Source: a virus. Taken from it: a DNA stretch of 64,000 nucleotides. The stretch covers positions 1 through 64,000 of the IMG/VR virus record IMGVR_UViG_3300029913_000003; one strand, given 5' to 3'. The translations under genes were made by a program, and so were the position numbers. This document shows, in pieces, positions 2-64,000 of this stretch; position 1 is the stretch's first letter, and every line of letters begins with the position of its first letter. Under the pieces are notes generated by a model, which was not told the DNA's origin, ran no database searches, and saw nothing but the letters and a program-made list of their open reading frames with translations.

Positions 2-127
2 ATAGATAGATTAAAAAGATCAAATCAGATAGATATGGATAAAGTCAATACAATTCTATTGGATAATATATCTATTAAATTCATTGAAAATTATATAAGA
101 AAAAGAAAACTTAATGAACTAAAATGA
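2..127 (+). CDS. 3' end of small-protein gene (5' partial) with C-terminal RKxKL tail
   Basis: Frame open from window edge, ends ...NYIRKRKLNELK*; TGA overlaps next ATG. Confidence 0.4.
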   Translation: MDRLKRSNQIDMDKVNTILLDNISIKFIENYIRKRKLNELK

Positions 128-390
128 GATTAATAACCAAATTTAACACTTTACAAGAATCGTATCATAATTTACAAATTCAATTAGCGAAATATGAGAT
201 TGAAAATTCTGAATTGCGTAGATTGAATAAAGAATTAATAGTATCTACTAATAATACAAAAATCGGTTATGAACATTTGAGAGATAAAATTATAAATAAT
301 CCAGAAACTATATTATATCACATAAAATTATCTAAAATTGAAAATTATTTACGTAAAGTTAAACTTAAACGATTAAATTTTAATAAATAA
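124..390 (+). CDS. hypothetical small protein, RKxKL-tail superfamily
   Basis: ORF track; C-terminal YLRKVKLKRL motif. Confidence 0.5.
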   Translation: MRLITKFNTLQESYHNLQIQLAKYEIENSELRRLNKELIVSTNNTKIGYEHLRDKIINNPETILYHIKLSKIENYLRKVKLKRLNFNK

Positions 391-393
391 ATT

Positions 394-615
394 ATGAATA
401 TAAATATTGATGAAGAATATCAAAAATTAGAAAATGATTTTAAAGAATTACAAGATAATTTTAAAAAACTTAATAATTATACTAATTATTTACAAAATTC
501 ATATGACAAATTAAAAGATTATTTATTAAATACTGAATTAGTTTTAAATGATATTGATTTTAAAGTTATTGAGTTATATGTGAGTAAAACTAAACTTAAA
601 AAATTAAGTAAATAA
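394..615 (+). CDS. hypothetical small coiled-coil protein, tail KTKLKKLSK
   Basis: ORF track; 4-nt spacing to neighbours. Confidence 0.5.
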   Translation: MNINIDEEYQKLENDFKELQDNFKKLNNYTNYLQNSYDKLKDYLLNTELVLNDIDFKVIELYVSKTKLKKLSK

Positions 616-618
616 AAT

Positions 619-963
619 ATGGATAACATAATAATATTATCACTATTTATTATAATATCATGTATATTATCATACATATTATTATATATAATGTTTGATT
701 ATGAATTTAAATTTAATGATATTATTATTCTTTTTAATAAAATAAAAATAATAAGATCCTCTGAATATAAATCAAATATTAAAATTAAAGATTTAGCAAT
801 AAGTGACAAATTAGATAAATATAGTTTAAAAGATATTGAAACCATATTAAATTATGATAATTTATATAAATCAGATCCTGATATTAAATTTATAATATTA
901 GATTATGAGAAAAAAGATATTGAGAAATATATTAGAAAAAAGAAACTTCAAAAAATAAAATAA
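619..963 (+). CDS. small membrane protein, N-terminal TM helix plus IRKKKLQKIK tail
   Basis: ORF track; hydrophobic N-terminus; tail shared with next two genes. Confidence 0.55.
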   Translation: MDNIIILSLFIIISCILSYILLYIMFDYEFKFNDIIILFNKIKIIRSSEYKSNIKIKDLAISDKLDKYSLKDIETILNYDNLYKSDPDIKFIILDYEKKDIEKYIRKKKLQKIK

Positions 964-992
964 TTATTACGATAAAAAGTAAATAAAATATT

Positions 993-60815: not shown

Positions 60816-61156
60816 AAGTTAAATTTTTCTTCTGCTTCTTTTTTAATTAAATAGTTATTATATTCATTTGGATAATTTTTTATAATATTTTCATATTGCT
60901 TATCAGTCAATAAATATGTAAAATAGTAACCTTTATTATTTTTAACATTCCAATCTGCTCCTGCTTCAATTAAAATGTTAACTATCTGCATATAATCATG
61001 CTGTGCTGCATAAAATAATGGAGTACGACCATCAATAGCTTTAATATTTATATCAGTGCCAGTACGAATTAAATGTTTAATTCTATTAATATCACCTTTT
61101 AAAATTGCATTAAATAAATCAATGCCTTTATCTTCAAATAATTTTATATATTTCAT
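60812..61156 (-). CDS. family E cassette protein with ankyrin repeats
   Basis: GRTPLFYAAQHDYMQIVNILIEAGADWNVKNNKG. Confidence 0.6.
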   Translation of the reverse strand: MKYIKLFEDKGIDLFNAILKGDINRIKHLIRTGTDINIKAIDGRTPLFYAAQHDYMQIVNILIEAGADWNVKNNKGYYFTYLLTDKQYENIIKNYPNEYNNYLIKKEAEEKFNL

Positions 61157-61464
61157 ATGTTAAATTTATTTATATTCTTCCAAAGTTCTGGATCAGTTGA
61201 CATTCTAAAAAATGGTTCTTCTTTAAAATTATTATGAGTTATCCAATTTTCAACAGTAAATTTATTAATATCACTAGATCCATTATAATATCTAAATGGT
61301 GGATATTCTAAATCTTCTATTTTTGCAAATGTATATGTGATTCCATTATAATCAATTAATTTAACTAAATATTTTTTATTTTTATTATAATTACTATTAA
61401 AACTATAATATGATCCAATATTAAGATTTAATTCTATTTTTTCAAATGTTTTTATATATTTCAT
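61153..61464 (-). CDS. family E cassette protein (unique core)
   Basis: MKYIKTFEK ... NINKFNI. Confidence 0.55.
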   Translation of the reverse strand: MKYIKTFEKIELNLNIGSYYSFNSNYNKNKKYLVKLIDYNGITYTFAKIEDLEYPPFRYYNGSSDINKFTVENWITHNNFKEEPFFRMSTDPELWKNINKFNI

Positions 61465-61871
61465 ATGTTAAATTTATTTGAACTTATTATCAAATCAAAA
61501 TCATCTTTATTTATTTGATTTATTATATAATCAACATGTTTAGCTGTTATGCTAAATGTATATATACAATTATATTCATTTTTAACTAAATCTAATCCAT
61601 CTATAGTTTCAAAATATTCTTCAATAATATTAAATTCATCATGAATATTTGATAATTTCAAATAAGTTTCTCCTAATATTATAGCAAATTCAAATGTTGT
61701 TGAAGAAGGTGTCTTTGAATAAAAAGATATTTCATTATGATATTTATATATTTTATTATAATTTGAAGTTAGATTAAAATCTAATGATAATATAAAATTT
61801 ACTAAAAAATTCATAAAATAAGCACTATTATCAGTTAAATCATATTTCTCAAATGTTTTTATATATTTCAT
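61461..61871 (-). CDS. family E cassette protein (unique core; first gene of array)
   Basis: MKYIKTFEK ... SSNKFNI. Confidence 0.55.
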   Translation of the reverse strand: MKYIKTFEKYDLTDNSAYFMNFLVNFILSLDFNLTSNYNKIYKYHNEISFYSKTPSSTTFEFAIILGETYLKLSNIHDEFNIIEEYFETIDGLDLVKNEYNCIYTFSITAKHVDYIINQINKDDFDLIISSNKFNI

Positions 61872-61889
61872 ATTATTATTTATTATTTA

Positions 61890-63539
61890 TTATTTATTAT
61901 TATTATTTAACTTTTCAATTGCTTCATTCATAATATCATCTGTTATACCTAATTCATGAGTGGTTTTAACAATATGTTTTTTATTAAATACATCATATAA
62001 ATCATGCTTATTATCATCTATAATTATAAAATTACTAACTATTTTATTATTTTTCAACCAATCTTTTATATCGGCACCTCTTTTTTTAGATTTGTCATTT
62101 GGAACACAGTCATATATTTTATATTTAAAACCTGCTTTTTTCATCATATCTTCTATTTTACTTTTAGGTTTATCATCTCTATATGATGAAGATAAAACAA
62201 CTTTAGCATCTGTTTTTTCAATTATTGTGTTTAAATTACTCATGGCAGTTTTACTCCATTTATCAGGCTCATTAAAAAATTTATGATAATTTACATCAGA
62301 ATTTTTATTATAAGGAATAAGTGGTCCATCAATATCTTCAAATATTACTTTTATTCCTCCATCTTTTTCTTTTTCTTTATCTTTTTCAATAGTTTTTATT
62401 ATACCATTAAATGATTCTAATCTGGAATAATTTTCATCATCTGCATCTATTATTATCCAAGGAGCATTTTTAGTATTTGTTTTTTTGAAAATTTCATTTA
62501 TATATTTAGTAAATTCGTCCCATTTATCTAAAGTTTGTTCATCATTCTTACTAAATTTCCAATATTTTAATGGGTTAGATTTTCTTAATTCAAACCTCAT
62601 TTTTTGTACATCCTGAGATATAGAAAACCATATTTTTATAAGTATTATATCATCATCAATTAATTTATCTTCAAAATTATTGACTTCTTTCATGAATTTA
62701 TTATATTTATCTTCATTTGAATATCCCATTACAGGTTCTACATAACCTCTTGTATACCAAGATCTATCAAAGAACACAATTTCACCGTTTTTAGGTAACA
62801 CTTTTTCATATCTTTCAAACCAATTATCACTTTCTTCTTCTGAAGGAATACCAAAAGTTTGAACTTTAAAATGCTTAGGATCAAGAAATCTTGTTATATT
62901 TCTAATTGCAGATCCTTTTCCTGCTGCATCTCTACCTTCAAATATAATTAACACTTTTTTATTATTATATACAATCCACTCTTGTAATTTCAATAATTCT
63001 ATTTGATATTTATATTTTGTTTTTTGATAATCATCAAAAGGTACTTTATTTATTTTAATATCTATTTTATTATATGGTTCATATGACTTATCAGTTTCAA
63101 TTTTATTGTAGAAAAATTCATAAGTGTTATCTATATATCTATCAACATTATCAAGATATGCTTTGAAAACACTATCTGCATTCTTTATATTAATATCAAA
63201 TGAATTTGTTATAGAATATATTTTTAGAATATCATTAGCAAATTTACCTAATCTCATCTGTTTAATTATATCATCATCTACATTATTTAAAAAATCTTTA
63301 AATAAATCTTTAAATTTACCCATAGTATTTTTATTATAATTATTTAATAAATATGTTTTATATGATTCTAAATCTTCTTTAATTTGAGTTTTATAGAAAT
63401 CTAATGTGTATTTTTTATCAATAGATTGCTTCAAATTTATAATTAAGCTTTTAAAAGAATGAATAAGGTTTTCCAATTCATCTTTACTACGATGAAAAAA
63501 AGCTTCATTTAGTTTATTATAATCATTATAGTTTAACAT
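61890..63539 (-). CDS. polyphosphate kinase 2 (PPK2) family protein with C-terminal HAD-like domain
   Basis: FEGRDAAGKGSAI ... FDRSWYTRGYVEPVMGY ... PLKYWKFSKNDE ... APWIIIDADD; C-terminus FEDIDGPL HAD motif I. Confidence 0.65.
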   Translation of the reverse strand: MLNYNDYNKLNEAFFHRSKDELENLIHSFKSLIINLKQSIDKKYTLDFYKTQIKEDLESYKTYLLNNYNKNTMGKFKDLFKDFLNNVDDDIIKQMRLGKFANDILKIYSITNSFDINIKNADSVFKAYLDNVDRYIDNTYEFFYNKIETDKSYEPYNKIDIKINKVPFDDYQKTKYKYQIELLKLQEWIVYNNKKVLIIFEGRDAAGKGSAIRNITRFLDPKHFKVQTFGIPSEEESDNWFERYEKVLPKNGEIVFFDRSWYTRGYVEPVMGYSNEDKYNKFMKEVNNFEDKLIDDDIILIKIWFSISQDVQKMRFELRKSNPLKYWKFSKNDEQTLDKWDEFTKYINEIFKKTNTKNAPWIIIDADDENYSRLESFNGIIKTIEKDKEKEKDGGIKVIFEDIDGPLIPYNKNSDVNYHKFFNEPDKWSKTAMSNLNTIIEKTDAKVVLSSSYRDDKPKSKIEDMMKKAGFKYKIYDCVPNDKSKKRGADIKDWLKNNKIVSNFIIIDDNKHDLYDVFNKKHIVKTTHELGITDDIMNEAIEKLNNNNK

Positions 63540-63718
63540 TAGGCACTAATATTTTTATTTGTATTATATATAAAAAAATAAGATCGTTATTTTATATTAA
63601 ACTATTTTTATTTATGAATAATTATTTATATCTTTGTAATCTTAAATATTTTTAATGCTTATGATAAAAAAATATCATAAATATTATATTAAACTTTATA
63701 TTAATTAAAAAATAAAAA

Positions 63719-64000
63719 TATGAAAAATATTGAAAAAACTAAATTTGAAATTAATAGTATAGACTTTAGTAATTTGAATGACACTGATTCAAATAATTTA
63801 AAAATAGAGTTATTGAAATATAATGATGATGAATTAAAAGAATTATTATTATATATAATGGACGATAAATTATCAATAAACATAAATATGGATAGTGATC
63901 CAAATTTAAAAATACTATTTGATGATAAAAGAATTATGAATATTCTTGAAACCATGTATGATGAAAATAAAAAAGAAATGGATAATATAGAAAAAAATAC
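63719..64000 (+). CDS. hypothetical protein (3' partial, runs off window)
   Basis: ATG at 63719 with open frame to window end: MKNIEKTKFEINSIDFSNLNDTDSNN... Confidence 0.45.

Follow-up and report, generated by a model that had tools for sequence, protein, structure and literature searches.

What could lead dozens of small viral proteins to end in nearly the same short basic peptide? The question is raised by the first 64,000 nucleotides of the IMG/VR virus record IMGVR_UViG_3300029913_000003, a stretch that we analysed in its entirety and refer to as the window. About 39% of its genes bear a C-terminal tail with the core R0-K1-x-K3-[L/I]4-x-x-[L/I]7, which is preceded by a hydrophobic or aromatic residue and followed by 1-12 unconstrained residues (e.g., SLKEYRKQKLKEIEE). 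Our analysis shows that this tail is selected as protein and not as DNA, and we propose, with a probability of roughly 45%, that it serves as a helical docking module by which its carriers bind a single common partner in the cytoplasm, most likely a protein hub. The window has a GC content of 21% and is 88% coding, with short and frequently overlapping genes. An initial annotation had put the number of tail-bearing open reading frames (ORFs) at 70 or more; we find 64 clear tails, and the count approaches 70 only with the inclusion of degenerate variants such as SKTKLKKL, LKIKLKKI and RRIKFKKM.

The low GC content, along with a proteome in which K, N, I and L are the dominant residues, would favor the trivial explanation that AT-rich codon usage (AAA, AGA, TTA) at ORF ends generates the tail by chance, which the initial annotation had itself named as the finding that would undo the motif. 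We counted the strict pattern RK.K[LI]..[LIM] in the last 25 amino acids (aa) of a greedy set of 156 ATG-initiated genes (18,882 aa): it occurs C-terminally in 41 genes and just once elsewhere, i.e., at 10.5 versus 0.07 per 1000 aa. The expectation is 0.1 genes if whole proteins are shuffled and 0.2 (at most 3 in 500 shuffles) if the last 25 aa alone are shuffled, a procedure that preserves the K/R/L/I-rich composition of the ends and thereby tests the AT-bias explanation. A relaxed pattern recovers 56 genes against 3-6 expected, and the DNA pattern GAATATAGAAAANNNAAAYTNAAW is present in 9 copies, whereas shuffles that preserve dinucleotides yield 0.00. Moreover, syntenic regions of equally AT-rich relatives are tail-free. 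The shuffles of ORF-end residues and of dinucleotides refute a chance origin, the probability of which we consider negligible; the enrichment over shuffled controls that the initial annotation had anticipated is thus borne out.

A position-specific scoring matrix (PSSM) derived from the tail instances and run over all six frames with a cut-off of 12 bits recovers the 64 copies, all in a coding frame and 63 of them within 12 residues of the stop codon. There are no scores between 8 and 12 bits, and no copies in non-coding frames or intergenic space. The tails lie on both strands, as had been claimed (52 on +, 12 on -), and are always oriented with their gene. They span positions 98 to 48,536; the last ~15 kb have none (48.6-64 kb), a different terminal motif being found there, and the description of the tail as window-wide hence had to be given up. 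The called genes account for 54 of the 64 copies; the remaining 10 belong to ORFs that have no ATG start or were left out of the greedy gene set. The ORFs without the expected ATG, 10 in total, include those at 18313-18757, 20335-20607, 23630-23839 and 47917-48346; in one example IIKSGDILICT stands in place of the MIKPGDILICT of its paralogues. These may be decaying copies or users of non-canonical start codons.

Is it the peptide or the nucleic acid beneath it that is conserved? The initial annotation had offered both a common C-terminal functional helix and the protein-level shadow of an inter-gene DNA or RNA element. Such an element might be a promoter, a signal for ribosome loading or coupling, or a recombination cassette akin to the promoter and stem-loop elements (PeSL) of phage T4, translated only incidentally. 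This reading draws on three observations: the tail adjoins or overlaps the next start codon in most arrays, its leucine codon choice is non-random, and some neighboring paralogues (e.g., those starting at 619, 993 and 1353) share identical tail DNA. However, the conservation tracks amino-acid classes across codon families. When positions 0 and 3 do not count toward the score, R and K are still found there in 81 of 81 strong matches and in 103 of 105 at a looser cut. Arg0 is never replaced by Lys, even though AGA needs just one change, in the direction of the AT mutational pressure, to become AAA, and K3 is an R just once in ~200 tails. A census of 149 distinct tails from the window and its relatives shows Arg0 encoded by AGA, CGA, AGG and CGT, and position 4 occupied by Leu (five codons: TTA, CTT, CTA, TTG, CTC), Ile (three codons) and in one case Val; Phe, which a YTN rule at the DNA level would permit, is absent from this position.

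Comparisons between homologs point in the same direction. Across 44 best-hit pairs of window proteins and their orthologues in relatives, identity is 0.98 at R0, 0.86 at K1, 0.95 at K3 and 0.82 at L4, as against 0.36-0.52 at the x positions, where the codons are free, 0.47 in the protein bodies and 0.41 in the residues after the motif. A conserved Leu is encoded by a different codon in 56% of the orthologue pairs in the tail versus 35% in the body. A comparison of 22 paralogues gives a same-codon fraction of 0.55 for tail and head alike; hence, the synonymous constraint that the initial annotation had proposed to look for is not seen under the tail. Since R, K and L are kept across codon families while synonymous and x sites vary, selection acts at the amino-acid level, and the periodicity of conservation (i, i+1, i+3, i+4, i+7) is that of a helix face rather than of a DNA site. 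Together with the absence of copies outside coding frames and a spacing to the next ATG that ranges from 23 to >800 nucleotides (nt), this frame specificity and the codon analysis in orthologues and paralogues largely refute the nucleic-acid shadow, which we regard as a remote prospect.

The reading frame of the tail is also protected, as AAG breaks up KKK runs, CTN-type Leu codons follow AAA, and the broken tails are indels in A-runs. Specifically, AAG makes up 33% of the K codons within KKK versus 4% elsewhere in the motif, and CTN codons make up 47% of the Leu codons in the motif versus 22% in the genome (p = 6e-5), with over-use after AAA. Both broken tails in the window result from single-A indels in A-runs and belong to members of an SH3-like family. 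The ORF at 5854-6042 ends in RFISLKRI, with EYRKEKLKEI lying out of frame beyond it (5832-5861, -). The losses in this ORF and in that at 6056-6256 could represent pseudogenes, assembly errors or slippage sites.

The tails are listed below by coordinates, strand, core sequence, carrier and PSSM score, with TM denoting a transmembrane segment; degenerate or broken versions are marked as such.

98-121 (+), RKRKLNEL, 1 aa to stop, ORF extends past window start, 20.2 bits
352-375 (+), RKVKLKRL, ORF 124-390, 23.5 bits
ORF 394-615, degenerate SKTKLKKL
934-957 (+), RKKKLQKI, ORF 619-963, N-terminal TM head, 30.4 bits
1317-1340 (+), RKKKLQKI, ORF 993-1346, TM head, 26.0 bits
1656-1679 (+), RKKKLQKI, ORF 1353-1685, TM head, 30.2 bits
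5626-5649 (-), RKQKLNNL, ORF 5602-5826, SH3-like head, 31.4 bits
5832-5855 (-), degenerate RKEKLKEI, out of frame after ORF 5854-6042, extra A in run TTAAAAAGAATAT
6048-6070 (-), degenerate, ORF 6056-6256 ends in YYRKKN and stop, one A added to the A8 run gives RKKKLERI
6259-6282 (-), RKEKLKEL, ORF 6244-6480, SH3-like, 30.9 bits
6483-6506 (-), RKQKLKEL, ORF 6468-6707, SH3-like, 31.8 bits
6713-6736 (-), RKEKLKEI, ORF 6683-6925, SH3-like, 33.4 bits
6931-6954 (-), RKEKLKEI, ORF 6901-7185, SH3-like, 25.0 bits
7190-7213 (-), RNQKLKEI, ORF 7166-7399, SH3-like, 26.2 bits
7442-7465 (-), RKKKLIEI, ORF 7424-7663, SH3-like, 19.7 bits
8130-8153 (-), RKKKLENI, ORF 8118-8318, 26.1 bits
8341-8364 (-), REKKLEKI, ORF 8323-8502, 21.9 bits
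9453-9476 (-), RKNKLETI, sole internal copy, stop 33 aa on, ORF 9351-9743, 23.5 bits
13705-13728 (+), RYIKIKKL, ORF 13405-13734, TM head, 16.9 bits
14031-14054 (+), RYLKLKKI, ORF 13731-14069, 20.4 bits
15389-15412 (+), RKEKIKKL, ORF 14849-15424, gp32-like single-stranded DNA-binding head, 22.6 bits, predicted helix 176-190
15737-15760 (+), RQIKLKKL, ORF 15428-15766, TM head, 20.7 bits
ORF 15763-16200, degenerate LKIKLKKI
16502-16525 (+), RRIKIKKF, ORF 16184-16531, TM head, 12.7 bits
16978-17001 (+), RKYKLQQI, ORF 16528-17019, 22.1 bits
17193-17216 (+), RKLKLNKL, ORF 17016-17231, SH3-like, 33.4 bits
17396-17419 (+), RLDKLNKL, ORF 17216-17434, 26.3 bits
17575-17598 (+), RKEKLNKI, ORF 17419-17613, 27.6 bits
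17742-17765 (+), RKEKLKEL, ORF 17598-17789, 25.6 bits
17921-17944 (+), RKEKLNTI, ORF 17774-17965, 18.9 bits
18478-18501 (+), RKLKLQKL, ORF 18313-18513, no ATG start, 34.2 bits
18716-18739 (+), RKLKLQKL, ORF 18539-18757, no ATG start, 34.2 bits
18916-18939 (+), RKQKLNEL, ORF 18745-18954, SH3-like, 33.6 bits
20349-20372 (+), RKLKLQKI, ORF 20085-20387, SH3-like, 28.0 bits
20569-20592 (+), RKLKLKEI, ORF 20335-20607, not in greedy gene set, 25.3 bits
20759-20782 (+), RKRKLKKL, ORF 20594-20797, SH3-like, 30.8 bits
21703-21726 (+), RYLKIKQL, ORF 21406-21735, TM head, 20.8 bits
22088-22111 (+), RYLKIKQL, ORF 21755-22120, TM head, 21.0 bits
23554-23577 (+), RKKKLEKI, ORF 23167-23592, 21.8 bits
23792-23815 (+), RKEKLKKL, ORF 23630-23839, no ATG start, 28.6 bits
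24040-24063 (+), RKTKIEKL, ORF 23824-24078, 18.4 bits
24296-24319 (+), RKIKLEKL, ORF 24071-24334, 24.0 bits
ORF 24321-24608, degenerate RRIKFKKM
24765-24788 (+), RKFKLSKI, short ORF 24645-24797, 12.2 bits
25187-25210 (+), RMIKLQKL, ORF 24794-25222, 20.8 bits
25534-25557 (+), RKLKIEKI, ORF 25219-25590, 22.4 bits
25867-25890 (+), RKQKLKEI, ORF 25708-25914, 33.2 bits
26079-26102 (+), RKEKLKQI, ORF 25890-26132, SH3-like, 33.6 bits
26309-26332 (+), RKQKLLEI, ORF 26108-26344, SH3-like, next ATG from motif's last base, 34.7 bits
26545-26568 (+), RKQKLKQI, ORF 26332-26598, SH3-like, AlphaFold-modelled (helix 68-87), 34.9 bits
26772-26795 (+), RKLKLLKL, ORF 26574-26813, SH3-like, 29.7 bits
27043-27066 (+), RKEKLKKL, ORF 26803-27084, 22.9 bits
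27267-27290 (+), RKQKILKL, ORF 27072-27296, SH3-like, 33.1 bits
27485-27508 (+), RKQKLLKL, ORF 27290-27535, SH3-like, 35.9 bits
27712-27735 (+), RKEKLKKL, ORF 27508-27756, SH3-like, 27.8 bits
28591-28614 (+), RKRKLLKI, short ORF 28501-28632, 13.4 bits
28802-28825 (+), RKKKLKKL, ORF 28616-28840, SH3-like, 30.2 bits
31598-31621 (+), RRIKLENL, short ORF 31481-31633, 15.8 bits
31824-31847 (+), RIEKLKKI, ORF 31638-31859, SH3-like, 26.0 bits
32156-32179 (+), RKEKLKKL, ORF 31847-32191, 28.1 bits
35121-35144 (+), RKDKLKQL, 12 aa to stop, ORF 34905-35183, 21.1 bits
37263-37286 (+), RKLKIEEL, ORF 37047-37307, 26.1 bits
37519-37542 (+), RKEKLEEI, ORF 37288-37563, 23.4 bits
40635-40658 (+), RKTKLEKI, ORF 40449-40670, 23.8 bits
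41852-41875 (+), RKNKLNKI, ORF 41636-41893, SH3-like, 24.4 bits
43476-43499 (+), RLKKLKIL, ORF 43113-43511, zinc-ribbon head (sub-threshold Zn-ribbon matches), 21.6 bits
48088-48111 (+), RKLKLNKL, ORF 47917-48120, no ATG start, 30.8 bits
48305-48328 (+), RKLKLNKL, ORF 48113-48346, no ATG start, 24.7 bits
48513-48536 (+), RKLKLNEL, ORF 48330-48566, SH3-like, 28.4 bits

What kinds of proteins carry the tail? The heads, clustered with their tails removed, fall into 29 BLAST clusters overall: about 30 SH3-like barrels, one gp32-like protein, eight with an N-terminal TM anchor and a K-rich C-terminal part, one zinc ribbon with a double CxxC, and about 20 further heads unrelated by BLAST. The initial annotation had called the carriers otherwise unrelated, which holds for the ~34 tails that are spread over at least 20 BLAST-unrelated head families but not for the ~30 of 64 that belong to the one SH3-like family. 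Its single-TM carriers (619, 993, 1353, 13405, 15428 and 21406) agree with TM prediction, and the zinc-ribbon carrier at 43113 indeed displays the double CxxC, its Pfam matches being below threshold. Going by the positive-inside topology, the tails of the TM carriers should be cytoplasmic.

For the SH3-like family, an AlphaFold model based on the 22 paralogues predicts a five-stranded SH3-like barrel followed by a helix (68-87) that contains the motif, with a mean predicted local distance difference test score (pLDDT) of 87 that rises to 95-97 over the motif. The tail of the unrelated gp32-like carrier is likewise predicted to be a helix (176-190), with lower confidence. On a 100-degree helical wheel computed from the sequence, the hydrophobic residue at -4, R0, K3, L4 and L/I7 all come to lie on one face. 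Amino-acid selection, a predicted helix on two folds and a single conserved face together speak for the common functional helix among the options of the initial annotation. The mean charge of the tail is +3.8, the heads being nearly neutral; its mean hydrophobicity is about -1.4 and its hydrophobic moment is low, which makes it too polar for a membrane-inserting helix. In Foldseek searches the SH3-like heads retrieved as best matches SH3 domains or small uncharacterized phage proteins, with weak scores (E>=1e-3, TM-scores 0.4-0.6), and in other phages this fold is found as stand-alone proteins of ~63 aa without the helix.

The gp32-like head (ORF 14849-15424) was recognized with a profile of four homologues, which matches the RB69/T4 gp32 chains in the PDB with E-values of 2.8e-9 to 1.3e-8; it also matches PHROG_224 (E 9e-6), and the homologues P0028 and P0029 carry PF08804. 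A 39%-identical orthologue retains the tail as REEKLKNI. The tail of this carrier aligns with a native helix, SKDKFKSF, in the C-terminal helical region (~198-253) of the T4/RB69 gp32 core, which shares the pattern x-K-x-K-hydrophobic-x-x-hydrophobic but has a Ser in place of the invariant Arg and lies in a region that is acidic overall; the likeness concerns one carrier only and is possibly compositional. The exterior helical region of gp32 has been implicated in gp32-gp32 contacts (PMC12893549), and the alignment is a weak lead that is compatible with a protein-protein role of the tail.

The mechanism that we favor is one in which the constant tail would act in the cytoplasm as a docking handle, recognized specifically by a single shared partner, with the variable head providing the individual activity or target binding. 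Specific recognition by one partner is suggested by the strict discrimination between Arg and Lys, the single helical face, the C-terminal modularity on different folds and the cytoplasmic location. As a bolder extension that we put forward tentatively, the tails might make up a private phage address code, with a single eight-residue helical tag, present on ~40% of the accessory-region genes and probably on hundreds per genome, wiring dozens of unrelated effector domains to one hub. As the hub one might consider a host machine, e.g., a protease, chaperone, ribosome or replisome, or else a phage-built compartment such as a vault-like MVP shell. One protein located amid the tail arrays, of 353 aa (19020-20081, +), is 78% identical to its orthologue in a related contig (L036) as against ~45% for its neighbors; examined as a candidate hub, it had no Pfam, PHROG or PDB match.

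Several considerations weigh against the docking helix. That there is a single partner, what it is and that the tail binds it are all points that we infer. The shared face was derived geometrically from sequence, and the high pLDDT of the SH3-like model could reflect intramolecular packing of the helix on its head. The breadth looks greater than it is, since a single paralogous family makes up almost half of the carriers. For the gp32-like protein, and for that carrier only, the tail may have been inherited as part of the structure and not have been added as a tag. Finally, the excess of CTN-Leu codons shows some nucleotide-level pressure on the tail as well.

Which partners other than such a hub might a C-terminal basic helix serve? 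One alternative is that it is a degron or timing tag by which an AAA+ protease or adaptor of host or phage clears the accessory, probably early, proteins together, with the heads being mere passengers. The C-terminal placement, the 1-12 unconstrained residues that might serve as an unfolding initiation site, the strict R/K discrimination suited to recognition by a protein, and a loose likeness to the basic MuA-type ClpX signal RRKKAI are all in its favor, and it would work for soluble and TM carriers alike given a cytoplasmic tail. But the motif stops short of the extreme C-terminus at a varying distance (1-12 aa, once 33), the terminal residues themselves are poorly conserved, and a stable helix is predicted where classical degrons are disordered; we deem it unlikely, though it is the alternative to be taken most seriously.

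Only slightly less plausible, and likewise unlikely, is a general polyanion-binding role, wherein the basic helix concentrates its carriers on the nucleoid, replisome, mRNA, other DNA or RNA, or anionic membrane. The net charge and the presence of head types that bind nucleic acids (gp32-like OB fold, zinc ribbon, small SH3/Tudor-like barrels) would fit such a role, but electrostatic binders accept the R/K exchanges that the tail avoids, and acidic E is frequent at its x positions. As for membranes, the polarity of the tail speaks against insertion, and the TM carriers are already membrane-located.

The surroundings of the tail offer yet another reading, namely that the tail lacks a shared function of its own and persists either because heads are repeatedly inserted upstream of a gene end that is retained as an A-rich leader for the overlapping next gene, or as a mere stabilizing helix. 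The initial annotation had observed that the tail adjoins or overlaps the next start codon, and the spacing data concur: of 165 tails, 163 have the next ATG no closer than 23 nt after the R codon, with 17 at precisely this distance, and 129 have it within 45 nt. A start at 23 nt uses the last base of the motif, which accounts for the frequent [IL]-C (nTA TGy), and this lower bound means that a neighboring gene can extend over the unconstrained residues behind the motif, yet hardly ever into the motif itself. Upstream of the gene starts in the window A is enriched from -13 to -3, and a Shine-Dalgarno sequence is absent upstream of every gene, resembling the Bacteroidetes, in which starts lack Shine-Dalgarno sequences and A at -3 and at further upstream positions tunes initiation (PMC6847099). 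Where a gene follows a tail, the tail supplies 70-80% A at its -21 to -3. Hence, the A-rich tail codons (-1 to about -30 of the next ATG) probably double as a leader without a Shine-Dalgarno sequence, and this use may be a reason for the retention of the tail when heads are exchanged. Nevertheless, a leader role cannot account for the amino-acid pattern: it would fix nucleotides and not Arg, Lys and Leu across synonymous codon families, 10 of 56 tails have no gene start in the 75 nt downstream, and the motif is far better conserved than the heads that it would supposedly stabilize. We therefore consider this hitch-hiking of the gene end, taken as the whole explanation, quite unlikely. An arrest peptide or a translational coupling of fixed geometry was rejected, as the distances to the own stop (standard deviation 6.5 nt) and to the next ATG (standard deviation 5.8 nt) both vary, with no constraint besides the lower bound of 23 nt.

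A further alternative is cargo loading, with the tail targeting its carriers into the capsid, as ejected proteins, or into a vault-like shell. The latter notion stems from an 817-aa protein encoded amid the tail arrays (2531-4984, +), which combines a major vault protein (MVP) shoulder, a vault repeat and an SPFH/Band-7 domain, an MVP-like architecture that is unexpected for phages. Its GenBank matches comprise three records only, all of huge "uncultured phage" genomes (462-735 kb) at ~50% identity. Relatives in which this gene is 90% identical bear 25-28 tails per 17-20 kb, and many cargos sharing one short C-terminal peptide would follow the logic of encapsulins. However, in LR756500 and LR756501 we found no tails in the 50 kb around the ~50%-identical homologues, i.e., these distant huge phages are tail-free for at least 20 kb around the gene, and the link of the tail to the MVP-like protein was rejected on these grounds. 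In addition, the eight membrane-anchored carriers would be hard to load into a shell, the tail is unlike known cargo-loading peptides in sequence, and cargo encoded by ~40% of the genes would be an exceptionally heavy load, making this a very unlikely option.

How widely does the tail occur? An exact-pattern scan of IMG/VR recovered AT-rich contigs (21-27% GC, 20-330 kb) with arrays of the same tails. Some of these are syntenic with the window at a DNA identity of 71-80%, and three others (L004, L005 and L008) have no DNA alignable to the window, yet bear 7-17 tails on other heads. The tail would thus seem to be old, with distant relatives that lack alignable DNA retaining its arrays on other heads. 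The arrays are also hyperplastic between close strains, as a strain variant from an ENA metagenome (L072) differs from the window at ~17.9-18.7 kb, carrying other genes (132 aa and 423 aa) directly upstream of the gene at 18745. Searches of 63 tail segments against Pfam yielded no family matched by more than one segment (best E-value 0.004), no Pfam or PHROG family covered the tail in searches with whole tail proteins, and the consensus had no match at E<=10 among PDB sequences. A profile search of 1.84 billion protein representatives returned 20 matches, all of them small metagenomic SH3-like-plus-tail proteins; tails on other heads were not recovered because the profile is dominated by the SH3-type flank. 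A tblastn search of the GenBank phage collection with an SH3-like-plus-tail protein gave no significant match. In cellular genomes the exact DNA pattern occurs at 118 loci, which after a profile filter show neither arrays nor C-terminal bias, and these are hence chance matches that give no clue to the host. Literature searches found no described shared C-terminal motif of huge phages. The surmise of the initial annotation that the tail matches no known motif thereby stands; as a sequence family the tail is new and unusual in scale, and it is confined to one clade of AT-rich huge phages from metagenomes.

What occupies the end of the window that lacks the tail? At 51650-52751 and 58058-61871 (-) there are 12 tandem genes whose products start with MKY[IL]KxFE and end in A-x-KFN[IL]. 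As ATGA overlaps join these genes, a single conserved junction of ~40 nt (GCAAATAAATTTAACATATGAAATATATTAAAA) codes for both ends. The Asn codon of KFN[IL] is the rare AAC in 10 of the 12 genes versus 9% genome-wide (p = 3e-9). The middles of the proteins differ, with that at 58507-58998 displaying ankyrin repeats, and a hidden Markov model of the SH3-like head showed no cross-matches to this array. The KFN[IL]/MKYIK junction is conserved at the nucleotide level, the opposite of the RKxKL tail.

The remainder of the window bears on the identity of the virus and its host. The recognizable genes encode the MVP-shoulder/SPFH protein, TnpB, an RNA-repair set, MgtC, ankyrin proteins, a glycosyltransferase, metallophosphatases and cytidylyltransferases. 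The window DNA has no nucleotide match in the GenBank phage collection; JGI, ENA and Logan metagenomes contain one of its proteins, on contigs 0.2-1 Mb long. The overlapping polycistronic arrays, the TnpB, gp32-like and T4_Y16D genes and the GenBank relatives, which are huge uncultured phages only, mark the genome as of prokaryotic type. In intergenic DNA TAnnTTTG is enriched 1.7-fold, and 14 copies lie 12-77 nt upstream of starts in the same orientation, though its total count in the window is not enriched. Given the lack of Shine-Dalgarno sequences, the A-rich starts and these Bacteroidota-like signals, the window is probably a piece of a huge phage of a Bacteroidota-type host.

The following genes were also seen in this region.

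22963-23034 (+), tRNA with anticodon CUA (amber suppressor), labelled "Pyl" by ARAGORN, Rfam tRNA score 55 bits
41376-41468 (+), second tRNA-like gene, 93 nt, Rfam 41 bits, missed by ARAGORN
30195-31217, 54718-55656, 56284-57006 and 61890-63539, RNA-repair toolkit
11271-12728 (-), TnpB/Cas12f-like (OrfB_IS605) gene
20836-21360, LOG/"lysine decarboxylase"-family gene, 83% conserved in relatives
10752-11051, T4_Y16D-like gene
53381-54010, MgtC-family membrane protein

TAG terminates 21 of the 156 ORFs (12 of 56 tail genes versus 9 of 100 others), and along with the CUA tRNA this may indicate stage-specific stop-codon recoding, as reported in other huge phages. The second tRNA-like gene, which possibly contains an insert or an extended variable arm, lies within a 750-nt stretch without a called gene. 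The RNA-repair toolkit comprises a PHA02142-type RNA ligase, a polynucleotide kinase-phosphatase, the head domain of a CCA-adding enzyme/polyA polymerase, and a PPK2 fused to the HAD domain of the "Swiss Army Knife" RNA-repair proteins. The TnpB gene has a counterpart of 82% identity in a related contig (L041), and the ~220-nt gaps at its flanks could be sites of an omega-RNA or transposon ends.

What would be gained from an understanding of the tail? The genes of huge phages are mostly small ORFans without a functional handle, and a tag shared by ~40% of those in this region offers a single experimental entry: identifying the binder of R-K-x-K-L-x-x-L/I would place dozens of unknown proteins in a common pathway. 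The window also exemplifies how a protein motif can be told apart from a translated nucleic-acid signal in compact, AT-rich genomes with overlapping genes, in which the two are easily confused, and it presents the opposite, nucleotide-level signature at the KFN[IL]/MKYIK junction.

Several known systems resemble the tail in part. The PeSL of T4-type phages are non-coding DNA with a promoter and a stem-loop, conserved at the nucleotide level. Like them, the tail recurs as a conserved sequence where small accessory genes adjoin in hyperplastic phage regions, but it is coding and conserved at the amino-acid level only, with no excess nucleotide conservation, frame-bound copies (64/64) and variable ATG spacing; the KFN[IL]/MKYIK junction is the better PeSL analogue and candidate inter-gene junction element. 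Precursor arrays of ribosomally synthesized and post-translationally modified peptides, such as the prochlorosins, combine a constant recognition peptide with a variable part in tandem genes, and the tail arrays too have one short constant segment for one partner beside a hypervariable one. Here, however, folded domains of 50-180 aa stand in place of core peptides as the variable parts, the constant segment is at the C-terminus, and no modification enzyme of this type was found. The eukaryotic monopartite nuclear localization signal (K-K/R-x-K/R) does not fit a prokaryote-type genome with an invariant Arg at the critical Lys position.

Closer parallels come from systems in which short C-terminal peptides address proteins to a common destination. 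The XB tail of SspB (LRVVK) and the MuA end (RRKKAI), both short C-terminal peptides of basic and hydrophobic residues, bring different proteins to a single hub, as we envisage for the tail. Yet the consensus of the latter is different, helical by prediction, not at the extreme C-terminus and without a link to ClpX; nor does it present the free carboxylate typical of ClpX C-motif-2 or ssrA-type signals, as 1-12 (once 33) variable residues follow it. In encapsulins, a virus-related system, unrelated proteins share a short C-terminal targeting peptide that is G/S/L-rich and extended. There too one short peptide is the common address of unrelated proteins, but our tail is a basic helix, some of its carriers are membrane proteins and their number is an order of magnitude higher; no match to a shell protein family was seen among ~30 larger window proteins scanned. 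Lastly, the poxvirus ankyrin-PRANC/F-box proteins and the Vif/SOCS BC-box proteins pair a variable head with a constant C-terminal hub-binding module. The tail arrays share with them the variable head and constant C-terminal helix in large paralogous arrays of a big virus, though those modules, with domains of 40-50 aa, belong to adaptors of eukaryotic ubiquitin ligases, and the tail is a phage element of 8-15 aa. If the partner of the tail were a host hub, its carriers would be the first large modular adaptor/effector family described in bacteriophages, and if they indeed form an address code, this would be a counterpart in bacterial viruses of the F-box/BC-box families or of cargo loading by encapsulins, at a scale undescribed for phages.

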